4,903 nt of DNA from a virus (IMGVR_UViG_2706794696_000005), one strand, 5' to 3'; counted from the stretch's first letter, positions 1 through 4,903 are shown. The notes: a model not told the origin generated them from the sequence alone. Made by a program: numbers and translations.

Positions 1-56
1 CGTCTGGGGAATATCTCCCCGGCAGCCTTCAGGGAAAAATATCATCAGATGGCTGC

Positions 57-410
57 TTAAAAAAAGAACAAATGGTAGTGTCCGCTATTGCCAGTACACC
101 TCAATTGCTCTGCGGCTTCGCTCAGAGCTGGCGTATGTTCCCGGCCTACTGATTCACACAGGTAATCAACGAAACCGGACACCAGTTTTCGTTCGCGAGG
201 CGTGATCGCCCCACCGACCGGAGTCCAGTAATCGAAACCCAGTTGCAGGAGTTTGAAAAAACGCTTGTGGAATGCGTAGTTACACACACGCTTAAAGTCT
301 GCGTGTATCCACTCACCTATTTTGATTTGATGCAGAAAATCGCAACTCTCCGGCGTCGCCGGGAGAAGTAATCCGGAAGAGGTTTGTTTGACCAGTTGTA
401 TATGTGCCAT
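57..410 (-). CDS. Hypothetical protein, about 117 aa, second gene of a small two-gene unit downstream of hok
   Basis: Open frame on minus strand ending at TAA 59..57. ATG at 410..408 is preceded by GGAGAA about 7 nt upstream. The ORF track extends to a TTG at 452 that overlaps the upstream stop; the ATG start is preferred. No family recognised. Confidence 0.5.
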   Translation of the reverse strand: MAHIQLVKQTSSGLLLPATPESCDFLHQIKIGEWIHADFKRVCNYAFHKRFFKLLQLGFDYWTPVGGAITPRERKLVSGFVDYLCESVGREHTPALSEAAEQLRCTGNSGHYHLFFF

Positions 411-448
411 CGGCTTTCTCCGGTGGCACGGTGTTACACAGCAGGAGT

Positions 449-736
449 TCAATCCTGCTCAAGATTGTAGATGAGTTTATTCTTCAGCAAAAGCAGAAAA
501 CCAGCCTTAAAACCAATCTCTTTCAAAACCCGTAATGATGTGACAAATTCGTCCTCACGCAAAATAAAACCGTCCGTCAGAAGTCCATTACAAAAATAAA
601 ATAACACAGCACCGCTCTTCCTTTGTTGAGATTGCAAACATCTAATGCGGCAATGGCTGACAATCGCTCCATTCTCAACGCGCACAGCATAGAGGCCATT
701 TTCACTAAAAATTTCACGCAATTCTTCGATTTTCAT
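449..736 (-). CDS. Hypothetical protein, 95 aa
   Basis: ATG at 736..734 preceded by GAAGGA Shine-Dalgarno-like motif; TGA stop at 451..449. Sits downstream of a predicted promoter and is followed closely by the 57..410 gene. No family recognised. Confidence 0.5.
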   Translation of the reverse strand: MKIEELREIFSENGLYAVRVENGAIVSHCRIRCLQSQQRKSGAVLFYFCNGLLTDGFILREDEFVTSLRVLKEIGFKAGFLLLLKNKLIYNLEQD

Positions 737-817
737 CTTCAGAATCCTTCCAGATAAATAGCTCTCCCCTGTTCGGGGTCCATCCCTCTTCTCCCTGCGC
801 GCTACTTAAGTGAGTCG

Positions 818-845
818 ATTCTATCTGCGAAGGTGCGCGAATCAA
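818..845 (-). promoter_or_regulatory. Candidate sigma70 promoter for the 449..736 / 57..410 gene pair
   Basis: On the minus strand, TTGATT (845..840), a 16-nt spacer, then TAGAAT (823..818); lies between the upstream terminator and the ATG at 736. Hexamer match only, no experimental support. Confidence 0.3.
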
Positions 846-854
846 ATTCACCGG

Positions 855-909
855 AAATAAACAACAAAAAACCCGCCGAAACGCTGAGAGATCACAGCGA
901 TGGGCGGGT
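855..909 (-). terminator. Rho-independent terminator, probable 3' end of the hok transcript
   Basis: On minus-strand RNA: stem AACCCGCC (909..902) pairs with GGCGGGUU (878..871), with an inner CGCUG/CAGCG stem, followed directly by UUUUUGUUGUUUAUUU (870..855). About 77 nt downstream of the hok stop. Confidence 0.5.
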
Positions 910-949
910 TAAGTGCGGGTGCGTTGAGGATGCCTGACACATCAGAGGT

Positions 950-977
950 GGGCGGGGATGGGATCAGCTCCCCGCCC
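950..977 (-). other. Stable GC-rich hairpin in the hok 3' UTR
   Basis: Perfect 9-bp stem GGGCGGGGA / TCCCCGCCC with a 10-nt loop, starting 9 nt downstream of the hok stop; no U-tract follows, so it is not a terminator. hok mRNAs carry structured 3' ends that pair with the 5' end; the 5' partner cannot be checked because it lies in the gap. Confidence 0.35.
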
Positions 978-985
978 GGTCACTC

Positions 986-1141
986 TTACTTCCTGGATTC
1001 GTAGTCTACGAAGACAGCGACCTCCGTCTGGCCGGTTCGGATTCGTACCTCACAGAGGTCTTTCCTCGTTACCAGTGCCGTCACTATGACGGTTAAACAG
1101 ATGACGATCAGGGCGATTAACATCGCCTTTTGCTGCTTCAT
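986..1141 (-). CDS. hok: Hok/Gef-family type I toxin (small membrane-depolarising peptide), 51 aa
   Basis: Translation MKQQKAMLIALIVICLTVIVTALVTRKDLCEVRIRTGQTEVAVFVDYESRK is near-identical over most of its length to E. coli HokD/HokC as I recall them. ATG at 1141..1139 with AAGGAG 9 nt upstream. Single transmembrane helix plus conserved C-terminal Cys region. Confidence 0.9.
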   Translation of the reverse strand: MKQQKAMLIALIVICLTVIVTALVTRKDLCEVRIRTGQTEVAVFVDYESRK

Positions 1142-1163
1142 AGCCTGCTTCTCCTTGCCTTTC
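1050..1163 (-). CDS. Partial mok-like overlapping reading frame (3' portion only; start lies in the N gap)
   Basis: A second frame is open from the gap edge (1163) to a stop at 1052..1050, overlapping the first about 90 nt of hok. This is the expected arrangement for mok in hok/sok loci. Only 37 codons are visible, so this is tentative. Confidence 0.3.
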   Translation of the reverse strand, partial: ERQGEAGYEAAKGDVNRPDRHLFNRHSDGTGNEERPL

Positions 1164-1725
1164 NNNNNNNNNNNNNNNNNNNNNNNNNNNNNNNNNNNNN
1201 NNNNNNNNNNNNNNNNNNNNNNNNNNNNNNNNNNNNNNNNNNNNNNNNNNNNNNNNNNNNNNNNNNNNNNNNNNNNNNNNNNNNNNNNNNNNNNNNNNNN
1301 NNNNNNNNNNNNNNNNNNNNNNNNNNNNNNNNNNNNNNNNNNNNNNNNNNNNNNNNNNNNNNNNNNNNNNNNNNNNNNNNNNNNNNNNNNNNNNNNNNNN
1401 NNNNNNNNNNNNNNNNNNNNNNNNNNNNNNNNNNNNNNNNNNNNNNNNNNNNNNNNNNNNNNNNNNNNNNNNNNNNNNNNNNNNNNNNNNNNNNNNNNNN
1501 NNNNNNNNNNNNNNNNNNNNNNNNNNNNNNNNNNNNNNNNNNNNNNNNNNNNNNNNNNNNNNNNNNNNNNNNNNNNNNNNNNNNNNNNNNNNNNNNNNNN
1601 NNNNNNNNNNNNNNNNNNNNNNNNNNNNNNNNNNNNNNNNNNNNNNNNNNNNNNNNNNNNNNNNNNNNNNNNNNNNNNNNNNNNNNNNNNNNNNNNNNNN
1701 NNNNNNNNNNNNNNNNNNNNNNNNN
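1164..1725. other. Assembly gap or masked sequence (562 N)
   Basis: Uninterrupted run of N. All ORF-track translation through this span (runs of X) is artefact. It removes the 3' end of the QueH-like gene and the entire 5' leader of the hok locus. Confidence 0.95.
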
Positions 1726-2370
1726 GATAAGAGGGCGTCCCTGAGATTTGCGGTGTAGATTGGTATCGCGCAGAGAATACACACAGCCACAATATTCCTG
1801 CTGATAGAATTTTTCGCGCTTGCTGATTTCAATCATACGGGACGAGCCGCCCTGCTTGCGCCAGTTATAATCCCAGTACACCATGCCCGGATAATGCGCG
1901 ACGGCTCGCCGCCCACAGTCGTTAACCTGCTGCATATTTTTCCAGCGTGAAATGCCCAGTGAACTGCTGATCACACTGAAACCATTTTCAGCGGCGTACA
2001 GCGCTGTCCGCTCAAAACGCATGTCAAAACACATGGTGCAACGGATCCCTCGTTCGGGCTCCCATTCCATTCCTTTGGCTCGTTCAAACCAGTTGTCTGT
2101 GTCGTAATCAGCATCAATAAACGGCACGCCGTGTTGTTCAGCAAAGCGAATATTCTCATCCTTACGAATTAAATACTCTTTCTGAGGATGAATGTTCGGG
2201 TTGTAGAAAAAGATGGTGTAGTCGATTCCCGAGGCCTGAAGCGCCTCCATCACCTCACCGGAACATGGAGCACAGCAAGAGTGCAGTAGTAGTTTGTTTG
2301 CCCCGTTTGGGAGCTCCAATTTGGGCCGTTTGAAATCAGCAACTGTCATAAATATGTTTATTGGGGTCAT
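1726..2370 (-). CDS. QueH-family (DUF208) putative epoxyqueuosine reductase-like Fe-S protein; 3' end truncated by the gap
   Basis: 215 codons visible. Motifs [22 protein letters not shown] and YCGCVYSLR match the conserved Cys motifs of QueH/DUF208 as I recall them. Start is ATG at 2370 or the in-frame ATG at 2349; neither has a good Shine-Dalgarno sequence. The stop is expected within the first part of the gap. Confidence 0.75.
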
Positions 2371-2489
2371 AAAAATATCAAAGAGTGTAGCATTAGAACG
2401 GGGCTATCGGAAACAGATGTGTGACTGCTCCCCGCCCTTTCGGGTGGTCTCCTGATGATTTGAGGGTGCAGAAATCCCTCCGGTTAAGG

Positions 2490-2518
2490 ATTAAATTTTT
2501 AACAGTGCTAAATTTAAT
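2490..2518. repeat. AT-rich inverted repeat (9-bp arms, 11-nt spacer)
   Basis: ATTAAATTT (2490..2498) and AAATTTAAT (2510..2518) are perfect reverse complements, directly abutting the stop of the 2518..2931 gene and at the start of the 147-nt gap upstream of the QueH-like gene. Candidate operator or weak terminator. Confidence 0.35.
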
Positions 2519-2931
2519 TATTCAGTTCTGGATTTTGTCGCCCTGCGTATCCGCGCTTTCGCGTTACGCTCAATCTGTATCAGCTTTTCTATATTTCTCC
2601 GCCTTTCCTGTTCCTCCTGGCGCAATAGCCTTACATCATCTGCCAGTCTGGTTTCTCTTTTTGCCACAGAGAGCATCCAGTCAAACGGCTCCACAACCGC
2701 ACCGCAGATTTTACAGCGGACCTGACGCTCTTTTTCGTCAACCCGTACAGAGGCGTGATGGCAATATGGTCTTTCCGATGGCTCATAAAGAAAATTAACC
2801 TGATTACGAGGGTCATCCTCTTTTACCGGAAATAAAACGATATTGCTTAACTCATCTTCTGGTTTTATTTCCATGCTCCTCTCCTTTGATGCGAATGCCA
2901 GCGGTAATTGAAGCCTGATAGCTAATTTCAT
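2518..2931 (-). CDS. Hypothetical protein with putative zinc-ribbon (C-H-H ... C-x-x-C) and basic C-terminal tail
   Basis: ATG at 2931..2929 directly follows the upstream gene's TGA (TGAATG junction). An alternative internal ATG at 2874 has AAGGAG 6 nt upstream and would give a 118-aa product. Sequence contains CHH ... CKIC and an Arg/Glu-rich C-terminus. No family recognised. Confidence 0.55.
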   Translation of the reverse strand: MKLAIRLQLPLAFASKERSMEIKPEDELSNIVLFPVKEDDPRNQVNFLYEPSERPYCHHASVRVDEKERQVRCKICGAVVEPFDWMLSVAKRETRLADDVRLLRQEEQERRRNIEKLIQIERNAKARIRRATKSRTE

Positions 2932-3354
2932 TCACAGTATCGCCTCCTGAAAATTACCCTGATAGAAAGCCAGTACACGCTGCATAGCTTCGCTCTTCCG
3001 GCACTCGCGACAGATTATATTCAGGCGCCTGTCGTAGCGGCGTATTTCTCCGTCAGGTAATGACCAGATAAGGTCCGGATCAACAACAACCGGTTTCCTC
3101 ACCTTTACTCTCGAGAGTTTTTTGCGGGCGCTTTGCCAGTCCTTGCGAGCCTGTTCAGACGGGAATAAGCCGTAGCCAGAATTATATACATCACCACTTG
3201 CGACCAGTTCTATGCATAAGCGACCGACAGACGCACGACTGATACCTGTTTCATCTGACAACTGCCGAATCGTGACCCGACCGTCCTGATGCACGAGTTC
3301 CACAATTCGCGTCTTCAGTTCTTCCCGCTGTTCGGGAGTAAAAGGTTTCGCCAT
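2932..3354 (-). CDS. Putative winged-helix / HTH DNA-binding protein, 140 aa
   Basis: ATG at 3354..3352 with AGGAGG immediately upstream. N-terminal region (VTIRQLSDETGISRASVGRLCIELVASGDV) has the pattern of a winged-helix HTH. C-terminal part contains a CxxC pair. Exact family not recognised. Confidence 0.65.
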   Translation of the reverse strand: MAKPFTPEQREELKTRIVELVHQDGRVTIRQLSDETGISRASVGRLCIELVASGDVYNSGYGLFPSEQARKDWQSARKKLSRVKVRKPVVVDPDLIWSLPDGEIRRYDRRLNIICRECRKSEAMQRVLAFYQGNFQEAIL

Positions 3355-3368
3355 AAATCCTCCTGAAA

Positions 3369-4115
3369 CTACTTAACAACCCTCGAATGGCTAACATTCG
3401 GACGCCAGCTCTCCCAGTTAAAATTCACCCAGCGCCCGCCGTTCATGACCATGCGATCCATCACCCGCTCGCCGAGCAATGTTTTCATCACCTCATAGTT
3501 CAGGTTTGTCAGCATCCCCACGCTGCGCATCGACGCTGTCCGGCGATCAACAATCTGGTGCAGCACCACCTGCTCGTTTTTCGTCTCGCGCTGAATGCCA
3601 ATTTCATCAAGAACCAGCAGATCCACTTCGCACAGCTCCCGCAAAAATTTTTCGCCTGACTGCCCGTCGTCATAGCTGGCGTGCAGGGCGCTCATAACAT
3701 CAGCCACGGTAACCACAATCACTGTCTGACCGTCTTTCAGCAGGCGATTCCCGATAGCTGCCGCTAAGTGATTCTTCCCGGTACCAGGTTTTCCGCTGAA
3801 CGCAAAATTTGTACACCCGGTCATCAGTTCATCGGCGATGGATTTCGCCTGGCTTAACGCGTATCGCTGGCCGTCGTTCTGCACCTGGTAATTCGCAAAC
3901 GAGCATTTACGGTGCAACGGCTGGATGCCTGAGCGATTCAGAATTTTTTCCACCCGCAACTGGCGATTCAGGCGGTTGATCTCCTCGCTACGTTTCTGGC
4001 CTTCAGCAAGTTGCCACTCGCGCCACTCCGCTACCGTTCTGAATGGGGCGGTTACATGTGGCGGGGTCAGTCGGCGGATGCGTTCCAGAACGCCGCCTGT
4101 CGCAATATTTTTCAT
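3369..4115 (-). CDS. DnaC-like replicative helicase loader (AAA+ ATPase, IstB/DnaC family), prophage paralogue
   Basis: 248 aa with Walker A GKPGTGKN and Walker B DLLVLDEIG. Long blocks resemble host E. coli DnaC (FSGKPGTGKNHLAAAI, MLTNLN, LLGERVMDRM). ATG at 4115 with AGGGGG upstream. Comparable to prophage DnaC paralogues such as Rac YdaV. Confidence 0.9.
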   Translation of the reverse strand: MKNIATGGVLERIRRLTPPHVTAPFRTVAEWREWQLAEGQKRSEEINRLNRQLRVEKILNRSGIQPLHRKCSFANYQVQNDGQRYALSQAKSIADELMTGCTNFAFSGKPGTGKNHLAAAIGNRLLKDGQTVIVVTVADVMSALHASYDDGQSGEKFLRELCEVDLLVLDEIGIQRETKNEQVVLHQIVDRRTASMRSVGMLTNLNYEVMKTLLGERVMDRMVMNGGRWVNFNWESWRPNVSHSRVVK

Positions 4116-4121
4116 GGTCCG

Positions 4122-4824
4122 TTACCCCCTGAAGCCTGGCGGGATCGCACTGTCCGGCAACGAGACGGTGTTAACCTGTCGGAGCAACGTCTCAGGCCGA
4201 ACACCTTTCGGCGCGAACAGGCCCTGGTATTCATTGGCGATGCTGTGTCGAATCACCTGCTCAGGTGTAAAACCCTGCTGACGGAATTTTTCCAGTTCCC
4301 GTATCGCCCCGTTAGCGCCCTGCTCCGTTCGAATCGGTTTTCGCAATGCCTGTCTGAACCGGACCCACTCATGCCAGAGTGTTTCCGGCAACCAATCGGG
4401 CAGCTCAATAGCCTCCGGCTCGAATTTTTTAGACGCTCGTTTTTGGCGAGGGGGAGATCAGTATTTAGATCTTCCTCTTCCTCTTCCTCTGGTAACGCTT
4501 TTTGATCCGTTTGTGTAACGCTGGCAGCGTTACCTTTTCGTTTCAGTTCGCGTATTTTTGTTACTCGCTCGTTTGTAACCGCCCGTTTTTTTTAGAGCTT
4601 TTTCCGTTATGACGTTCAAAGTTAGGTAGAGAAAGCCCTCCGTCATTTTCGACCAGCCATCCAACCTGAATTAACGCATCAGCAAAACCAGACATAAAAG
4701 TGATGCGATCTATTGCACTTTTTGTAACGCCGCGAGCGTTACAATCTGCATTACCGTCTATCATTTGTTGATCCGCCCATGCCCAGAAGCGAATAACCTG
4801 AGGTAGCCTGAGTTTAACGGACAC
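4122..4824 (-). pseudogene. O-like phage replication initiator / replisome organiser, disrupted (three reading frames; 5' end abutted by an IS)
   Basis: An N-terminal segment (4561..4824), an acidic middle segment with EEEEEE, and a C-terminal segment (4122..4391) lie in three different frames. They join into one protein of about 230 aa if one A is added in each of two A-runs (A8 at 4586..4593, A6 at 4425..4430). The apparent GTG start at 4824 falls inside the predicted IS end. Confidence 0.55.
4491..4593. repeat. Iteron-like repeat cluster plus A/T tract inside the replication gene; candidate prophage origin
   Basis: Perfect 19-bp palindrome GTAACGCTG-G-CAGCGTTAC (4515..4533). GTAAC/GTTAC cores recur five times within 4492..4579, with a CGTTTGT..AAC direct repeat (4508.. 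and 4569..), followed by a T8 tract at 4586..4593. Lambdoid origins lie inside the O gene linker with this organisation. Confidence 0.35.
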
Positions 4825-4903
4825 TCCTTCCTGAAATAGAATGGCATCAGAAGGAGCTAATAATGAGCAGAAAAACCCAACGTTACTCTAAAGAGTTCAA
4901 AGC
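4799..4903 (+). mobile_element. Probable left end of an IS3-family insertion sequence (IS600-like), continuing beyond the window
   Basis: Candidate terminus TGAGGTAGCCTGAG at 4799 (alternatively TGAG at 4809), about 55-65 nt upstream of a plus-strand ATG (4863) with AAGGAG RBS. The encoded peptide MSRKTQRYSKEFK fits the conserved N-terminus of IS3-family OrfA transposases, and IS600 OrfA as I recall it. Boundary is approximate. Confidence 0.45.
4863..4903 (+). CDS. IS3-family transposase OrfA, N-terminal 13 codons only
   Basis: AAGGAG (4851..4856), 6-nt spacer, ATG at 4863; translation MSRKTQRYSKEFK runs off the window edge. The R-x-Y-S-x-E-F-K pattern is typical of IS3-family OrfA. Too short to be certain. 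Confidence 0.45.
   Translation, partial: MSRKTQRYSKEFK

Follow-up and report, generated by a model that had tools for sequence, protein, structure and literature searches.

The viral contig IMGVR_UViG_2706794696_000005, a stretch of 4,903 nucleotides (nt) that is called the window in its entirety below, carries on its minus strand a queH gene, the product of which belongs to the cobalamin-independent epoxyqueuosine reductases. By sequence and predicted fold, this product is a genuine, intact and ordinary member of the QueH family, and the gene has a fixed place as cargo in lambdoid prophages of the Rac type (i.e., those with a ydaSTUV replication module) of Escherichia coli and Escherichia albertii. 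Approximately 18% of the complete E. coli genomes carry a prophage queH, which duplicates the function of the core, vitamin B12 (cobalamin)-dependent QueG; it is this context that is noteworthy. We consider it probable that queH forms a functional cassette that provides for B12-independent maturation of queuosine (Q).

The sequence-only reading had assigned the product to the QueH (DUF208) family on the basis of three cysteine motifs, and profile searching fully bears this out. The PF02677 (QueH) profile matches the product of the open reading frame (ORF) with an E value of 1.6e-65 and a score of 220.9 bits (cutoff 23.5) over profile positions 1-174 of 175, a full-length domain match to the known family (PF02677, the former DUF208, and COG1636), and QueH of Thermotoga maritima (7lc5), which is 31% identical to the window protein, is matched with an E value of 4.5e-22 (residues 27-203). 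The match to QueH is far beyond chance. Numbered from ATG 2349, the three motifs are C25-C26-A-P-C29, C104-x-x-C107 and Y186-C187-G-C189-x-Y-S. A homologue search of 1.84 billion cluster representatives yielded 4,764 relatives, and conservation was assessed over the 63 that cover the entire protein, each standing for a cluster at 50% identity; they are 31-75% identical to the window protein. Six cysteines (C25, C26, C104, C107, C187, and C189) are invariant in all 63 of these, as are G188, N52, and S192, while position 29 is a cysteine in 59 and an aspartate in the other 4, a group that includes T. maritima with its D13. The window protein agrees with the majority at all these positions, including position 29 with its cysteine, and the family motifs H-C-C-A-P, N-P-N, and C-G-C-x-[YF]-S are present as well. 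These residues, position 29 included, are the presumed ligands of a [4Fe-4S] cluster and an extra iron, as reported for the T. maritima structure.

Structure prediction agrees with this assignment. An AlphaFold2 model of the window protein, made from a shallow alignment, has a predicted local distance difference test score (pLDDT) of 75.3 and a predicted template modelling score (pTM) of 0.76 and reproduces the fold of the solved QueH, i.e., an adenine-nucleotide alpha-hydrolase-like Rossmann core. In a Foldseek comparison of this model with the Protein Data Bank (PDB), the five best matches were all QueH (E values 2e-10 to 6e-9; template modelling (TM) scores 0.60-0.68 / 0.76-0.79), and TtuA, TilS, and LarE, which are iron-sulphur (Fe-S) enzymes with the adenine-nucleotide alpha-hydrolase fold, ranked well behind. 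The predicted fold is thus shared with the structures of T. maritima QueH (7LC5, 7LC7, 9DEU, 9DCO, and 9D86); according to their titles, the PDB entries for this protein include C9S and D13N mutants. Compared to T. maritima QueH, the window protein has ~18 extra N-terminal and ~25 extra, basic C-terminal residues, which is typical of the proteobacterial subfamily, and it has a cysteine, the family majority, in its CCAPC motif where the T. maritima enzyme has Asp13. The window copy is prophage-borne rather than chromosomal. Judged by its sequence, the window gene very probably encodes an active QueH.

The exact protein already has a name in RefSeq, where WP_012421537.1 (“epoxyqueuosine reductase QueH”; NZ_CP065613.1) is 100% identical to the visible part of the window protein. 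In PHROGs, phrog_3217, with the annotation “unknown function,” proved to be QueH (E value 4.5e-129) and can be corrected accordingly. Its profile begins at Met34 and consequently leaves out the first cysteine motif (CCAPC); the phage gene calls for phrog_3217 appear to be mis-started. A mention of DUF208/COG1636 in PMC3403352 deals with its linkage to ruvABC/yebC and not with phages.

On the minus strand, the queH ORF opens with either ATG 2370 or ATG 2349 and continues into the run of N that begins at position 1725. The former start codon, on which the sequence-only reading was based, was dropped, as an alignment of the upstream regions of five contexts shows ATT at this position in the O7:H15 strain. 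The N-terminus of 30 aligned homologues corresponds to ATG 2349, with the motif M..F.RP.L.LP.G conserved there, and the RefSeq coding sequence (CDS) also starts at this codon. Consequently, 208 rather than 215 residues are visible and the spacer upstream of queH measures 168 rather than 147 nt. The C-terminus, i.e., 13 residues and the stop codon, was retrieved from two sources. A contig in IMG/VR (L099) is 100% identical to the window wherever bases are visible, and this extends to the two junctions with the insertion sequence (IS) elements, and E. coli FDAARGOS_944 (L001) is 99.5-99.9% identical to window positions 104-4799; both have the same 247 nt at the place of the N run. Since 247 nt stand there against 562 N in the window, the length of the N run does not represent the true spacing in the identical contig. 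The 247 nt comprise the last 13 queH codons (KIGQLHYGKEEKE) and the stop codon, followed by the region of the hok mRNA leader and the sok antisense RNA; the Rfam model for sok (RF01794) scores 117 bits in the hok leader at positions 8726-8901 of L001. The N run of the window thus conceals the stop codon of queH as well as the regulatory region of hok/sok. The complete QueH consists of 221 amino acids and its ORF is intact in the identical contig.

With the CDS alone as a query, queH was encountered in 995 of the 5,426 complete E. coli genomes (in 985 with a coverage of 80% or more), nearly always on the chromosome; a query that included sequence of the upstream gene gave 2,427 of 5,426, a count that is inflated. 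Since queG is present in each of the 5,426 genomes, all queH-positive E. coli carry both enzymes, one being core and the other accessory. In four annotated contexts, i.e., FDAARGOS_944, O157:H7 Z1723, an ST131 strain, and the O7:H15 strain, queH directly follows a ydaS/T/U/V-DUF1627-DUF977 module and precedes variable cargo (hokD; an NgoMIV-type restriction enzyme with Dcm; DUF1971) and then nin-like genes, with queH and the replication, cargo, and nin-like genes all on one strand. Among 80 IMG/VR loci surveyed for their neighbours, a DUF977 protein was found upstream in 61 and a zinc (Zn)-ribbon protein in 15, with Hok downstream in 60 and Dcm in 11. The earlier proposal of accessory cargo between phage replication genes and hok is supported by the flanks of queH in the window (YdaV, DUF977, and the Zn-ribbon protein on one side, Hok on the other) and by its occurrence in only part of the E. 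coli genomes. The gene is a variably present insert with a fixed slot and variable neighbours. In O157:H7 Z1723 (L013, 2264-4274), an NgoMIV-family endonuclease and a DNA cytosine methyltransferase are located just 3' of queH; this pair appears to have been inserted after hok-leader-like sequence.

The only convincing carrier of queH among the phage genomes deposited is HannyBb, a complete, temperate and lambdoid Escherichia phage; the product, annotated as “hypothetical protein,” is 98.6% identical to that of the window. Matches to “phage” records in tblastn with <60% identity were not counted as phage QueH, as they are mostly unannotated fragments or oversized records that may be bacterial. 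No paper on a prophage-borne or phage queH was found in the literature that could be searched. In several respects queH resembles the morons of lambdoid phages: it is a small, variably present unit with a promoter-like element between the genes of a phage operon, and it shares its slot with hok/sok and restriction-modification cargo, just as moron or lysogenic-conversion cargo sits between the replication and nin genes of lambdoid phages. However, unlike morons, the queH cassette has no detected terminator, and in GC content it does not differ from the sequence around it.

The queH cassette measures ~0.75 kb and is made up of an extended -10 element, a short leader, and the 221-codon ORF. Its upstream border lies ~71 nt before ATG 2349, at window position 2420, since most of the E. 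coli matches listed stop at query position 695, and downstream homology stops ~8 nt past the stop codon. The extended -10 element, TGCTACACT, is positioned at -43 in 79 of the 80 IMG/VR copies and is shifted by 1 nt in the 80th. At the same distance, TGCTACA(C/A)T precedes the chromosomal queH of Scandinavium, Enterobacter hormaechei, Enterobacter quasihormaechei, Enterobacter chuandaensis, Kluyvera, and Symbiopectobacterium, the flanks of which have diverged. That TGCTACACT is kept where the flanks diverge and is common to chromosomal copies argues for autonomous transcription. It would represent the native promoter element of queH, brought along at capture, with a predicted transcription start near position 2377 and a leader of ~28 nt. 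No terminator-like site was detected upstream of queH, nor downstream of it in either the window or L001, the hok promoter and leader following directly; since no terminator precedes queH, it is also likely that transcription of the early-right operon reads through into the gene in lytic growth. As an observation in its own right, the sole promoter-like match of a generic scan (TTGAAA-17-TATGTT; window 2330-2358) is located on the plus strand, antisense over the queH start; the number of promoter-like matches is at chance level (1 found vs. 1.8 expected).

Separate regulation of queH, which had been suggested earlier from an AT-rich spacer and a palindrome upstream of the gene, is plausible by means of the conserved TGCTACACT but not by means of these two elements. 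Both do exist, but the spacer is heterogeneous and only moderately AT-rich (41% GC vs. 50% for the window, with 30% GC in the stretch 2471-2517), and the palindrome (ATTAAATTT / AAATTTAAT; 2490-2518; 9-nt, AT-only, -2.5 kcal/mol) lies outside the queH cassette. As a regulator of queH they were rejected: the palindrome is weak, extends over the stop codon of the gene upstream, and shows no conservation together with queH. The AT-rich stretch and the palindrome (2471-2518) go with the Zn-ribbon gene; most other contexts of queH lack them, homology ending there at ~2420. A GC-rich hairpin without a U tract (CCACCC-GAAA-GGGCGG; minus strand, ~2431-2448; about -8.6 kcal/mol), located between the Zn-ribbon gene and the queH cassette, is found only in the Zn-ribbon-type upstream module.

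The closest relatives of the prophage QueH are those of Scandinavium and Enterobacter hormaechei (96% amino acid identity), followed by Kluyvera (93%) and other Enterobacter (90-92%), while the chromosomal QueH of Erwinia, Pantoea, and Providencia is 80-88% identical. These Enterobacterales proteins (80-96% identity overall) have the same length and termini as the window protein, and the closest of the chromosomal genes share its extended -10 motif at -43. The chromosomal genes reside among ordinary genes: queH adjoins tmcA and purC in Providencia, is near smpB and mgtA in Pantoea, lies between purL and glrK in Erwinia, is among housekeeping genes in Enterobacter sp. ECC-175 (91%), and stands beside an integrase fragment, between chromosomal genes, in Enterobacter hormaechei (96%); in Kluyvera and Scandinavium the loci are without the phage neighbours of the window. 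The window copy, in contrast, is part of a phage early operon, in a host that has QueG. Phage neighbours were seen beside queH in only one of 80 genome loci, that of E. albertii (99%). It seems most likely, from these comparisons, that queH was recently captured from a chromosome of the Enterobacteriaceae, with Enterobacter, Kluyvera, and Scandinavium as the likely donors. The earlier statement that enterobacteria normally use QueG holds for E. coli but is too broad for the order as a whole, because QueH with 80-96% identity occurs in non-prophage settings in Enterobacter, Providencia, Pantoea, and Erwinia. It may be added that the E. coli prophage copy is 79-83% identical to QueH of Pseudomonas, Sphingomonas, Brevundimonas, Nitrobacter, and Nitrosospira (L061, L067, L080-L083, L087-L092), a likeness across proteobacterial classes that points to either unusually tight conservation or horizontal spread of the subfamily, with some of these loci being metagenome-assembled genomes in which contamination is possible.

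Comparison of the window copy with other prophage copies of queH (pairwise, Nei-Gojobori) gave ratios of non-synonymous to synonymous substitution rates (dN/dS) of 0.028-0.036, with 17-39 synonymous vs. 2-6 non-synonymous differences and a synonymous divergence (dS) of up to 0.38. By this measure, the QueH protein is maintained by strong purifying selection in its phage setting. The pattern of distribution and conservation would imply selection for finishing queuosine without cobalamin.

QueH is an enzyme with a [4Fe-4S] cluster plus iron that, independent of cobalamin, converts epoxyqueuosine at position 34 (oQ34) to Q34 in tRNA-Asp, -Asn, -His, and -Tyr. E. coli is not known to synthesise cobalamin de novo. 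Since it always has the cobalamin-dependent QueG, a QueH would free the last step of Q synthesis from the supply of corrinoids. The phage-borne enzyme would thus bring about a cobalamin-independent maturation of oQ to Q in host tRNA. In lysogens, queH would be expressed by means of the predicted promoter of the cassette itself; in lytic growth it would probably also be transcribed by read-through from the early-right operon. The substrate is available in E. coli: it is established that tRNA-guanine transglycosylase (TGT, encoded by tgt) and QueA make oQ34 on tRNA-Asp, -Asn, -His, and -Tyr, after which the epoxide is reduced to Q by QueG or QueH (PMC5372724; PMC9508795). QueG performs the same reaction on tRNA as QueH (PMC4646009), but the two are not homologous and only QueG needs cobalamin. 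The last Q step in E. coli was shown to depend on a cobamide (PMC4646009, citing Frey et al. 1988).

A more limited role would be that of an auxiliary gene of the lytic phase only, with queH being expressed from the early-right (pR-type) operon after induction and remaining silent in lysogens; maximal Q34 on the host tRNAs would then ensure efficient or accurate translation of phage genes at NAU/NAC codons. The orientation of queH, which is the same as that of the replication genes in every context examined, the lack of a terminator-like site between these upstream genes and queH, and its presence in HannyBb, an isolated and complete temperate phage, all fit this idea. It does not account for the extended -10 element just upstream, which is kept despite divergent flanks and common to chromosomal copies, nor for the intact queH in the window, where the prophage can no longer grow lytically. 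A purely lytic role thus seems rather unlikely to us, although it and B12-independent maturation by a functional cassette are not mutually exclusive. The prophage in the window is a dead, decayed lambda-like remnant cut by two copies of IS600 in which hok and queH, the latter with its promoter motif, have stayed intact, which is consistent with retention at the level of the host. This same setting, with hok adjoining queH in an otherwise decayed remnant, and with hok downstream of queH in 60 of 80 loci, may also be read as that of a neutral hitch-hiker that brings no benefit and is kept by linkage to the hok/sok addiction module and by the mosaic exchange among lambdoid phages. The low dN/dS (~0.03 among copies whose dS reaches 0.38), the conservation of all catalytic residues and of the promoter motif, and the occurrence of queH without hok, e.g., beside Dcm/NgoMIV or DUF1971, make neutrality improbable.

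Repurposing of the reductase, already raised in the sequence-only reading, could concern another substrate, such as a modified base of phage DNA, a nucleoside that is free, or an epoxide other than that of oQ34, or a change of Q status by which anticodon nucleases or colicins are evaded or triggered. The use of 7-deazaguanine chemistry on DNA is known from phages (PMC6884629; PMC10516641), and the queH slot also hosts cargo of the defence type (restriction-modification, hok). However, the prophage protein is 90-96% identical to QueH of Enterobacteriaceae, and 80-88% to that of other Enterobacterales, in non-prophage settings, without distinguishing substitutions at the conserved positions. Apart from queH, no gene related to queuosine or 7-deazaguanine, and thus no DpdA/TGT-like or preQ0-synthesis gene, is annotated in positions 1-39,655 of the 45,272 of HannyBb or in an 18.9-kb stretch of a related prophage, as judged by annotation only and not by a profile search of every ORF, and PADLOC found no match to a defence system for QueH or its three uncharacterised neighbours. 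The idea thus found no support and we regard it as very improbable.

A few observations weigh against a functional queH cassette as the explanation. The AlphaFold model is of moderate confidence only, and a scan of the window protein with the hidden Markov models of the NCBIfam library gave no match, so that the name in RefSeq is not based on a model of that library. The leader of queH has no Shine-Dalgarno sequence, and a generic sigma-70 scan found no site on the queH strand; the promoter is a candidate recognised by its motif, with a poor -35, which is why TGCTACACT was passed over by the generic scan. A poor -35 is usual for promoters with an extended -10 element. The literature that could be searched gave no report on the expression or activity of any prophage copy of queH. 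Furthermore, the adjoining hok/sok module could on its own be enough to keep the fragment of the remnant stable, and no growth phenotype is known for oQ vs. Q in E. coli, which makes a selective benefit of a prophage queH less certain. The activity of the prophage copy, its expression in lysogens, and any fitness benefit are inferred. For B12-independent Q maturation in the lysogen as the benefit that is selected for, arguments in favour and against seem to us to be in balance, and it is a somewhat doubtful proposition that cobalamin-independent Q maturation is a true lysogenic-conversion trait spread among E. coli by a temperate phage.

The identification of queH by itself adds little, because the enzyme family, its chemistry, and the name of the exact protein are already public. 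If prophage queH does represent such a lysogenic-conversion trait, the strong purifying selection on it would mean that Q and oQ differ in their physiological value, and a scarcity of corrinoids, e.g., under competition for B12 in the gut, would give lysogens an advantage related to translation or virulence. No physiological reason is known for finishing queuosine when cobalamin is unavailable; prophage queH would then offer a natural genetic handle on the purpose of the last step of Q synthesis.

The features of the window are compiled in Table 1.

Table 1. Features assigned in the window, with their positions and the matches or remarks on which the assignment is based (PGAP, Prokaryotic Genome Annotation Pipeline).
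Feature	Position	Strand	Match or remark
IS600 copy, 3' end	1..103	plus	100% identity to annotated “IS3-like element IS600 family transposase” ends
DUF1367 / NinB-like gene, cut by IS600	104..452	minus	PF07105, profile 1-102 of 198 only; phrog_319
hokD-type type I toxin gene	986..1141	minus	PF01848, E 4.3e-23
Run of 562 N	1164..1725		247 nt in identical public contig
queH, visible part (codons 1-208 of 221)	1726..2349	minus	PF02677; 7lc5; WP_012421537.1
queH cassette, 5' part (predicted promoter region and ~28-nt leader)	2350..2420	minus	Common to other prophage copies
Extended -10 element TGCTACACT (TG-n-TACACT)	2384..2392	minus	43 nt upstream of ATG 2349
Tail of the module of the upstream gene (hairpin and palindrome)	2421..2517	minus	Matches phages without queH (query 707-875)
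Zn-ribbon protein, phrog_1621 (118 amino acids)	2518..2874	minus	phrog_1621, E 3e-56; PGAP CDS at L001 9793-10149
DUF977 / Ren-like (YdaW-type) protein	2932..3354	minus	PF06163, E 1.1e-33; phrog_142
YdaV, DnaC-like replicative helicase loader	3369..4115	minus	NF009043, E 8e-154; IstB_IS21 and DnaC matches
YdaU-like replication initiator remnant	4122..4802	minus	Frameshifted, truncated by IS600
IS600 second copy, 5' end (orfA from 4863)	4803..4903	plus	100% identity; full copy in L099

The two IS600 copies are in direct orientation and bracket a prophage fragment of 4.7 kb. The left copy truncates the DUF1367/NinB-like gene, with homology of the window to L001 ending at window position 104. An integrase fragment directly adjoins this copy in the identical contig, so that the late genes of the phage are lacking there. 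The right copy, as seen with the aid of the same contig, arose by simple insertion into the YdaU-like gene, with its junction at 4802/4803 and a 3-bp duplication (ACC). No exact match to the IS600 junction was obtained in the genome contigs scanned, whereas the identical locus was found in IMG/VR. Compared to L001, the YdaU-like gene has a deletion of 10 nt at position 4449 and an insertion of 2 nt at 4586-4587. The Zn-ribbon protein has only a sub-threshold match to Zn_Ribbon_TF. The intact relative L001 has four tRNA genes (Gly, Thr, Arg, Ile; 6060-6370) upstream of its lysis genes; not one of these tRNAs is queuosine-bearing. A protein of 95 amino acids assigned to phrog_340 (window 449-736, minus strand), for which no Pfam match was obtained, and the phrog_1621 protein flank the hok-queH pair on either side; both are conserved small phage proteins.

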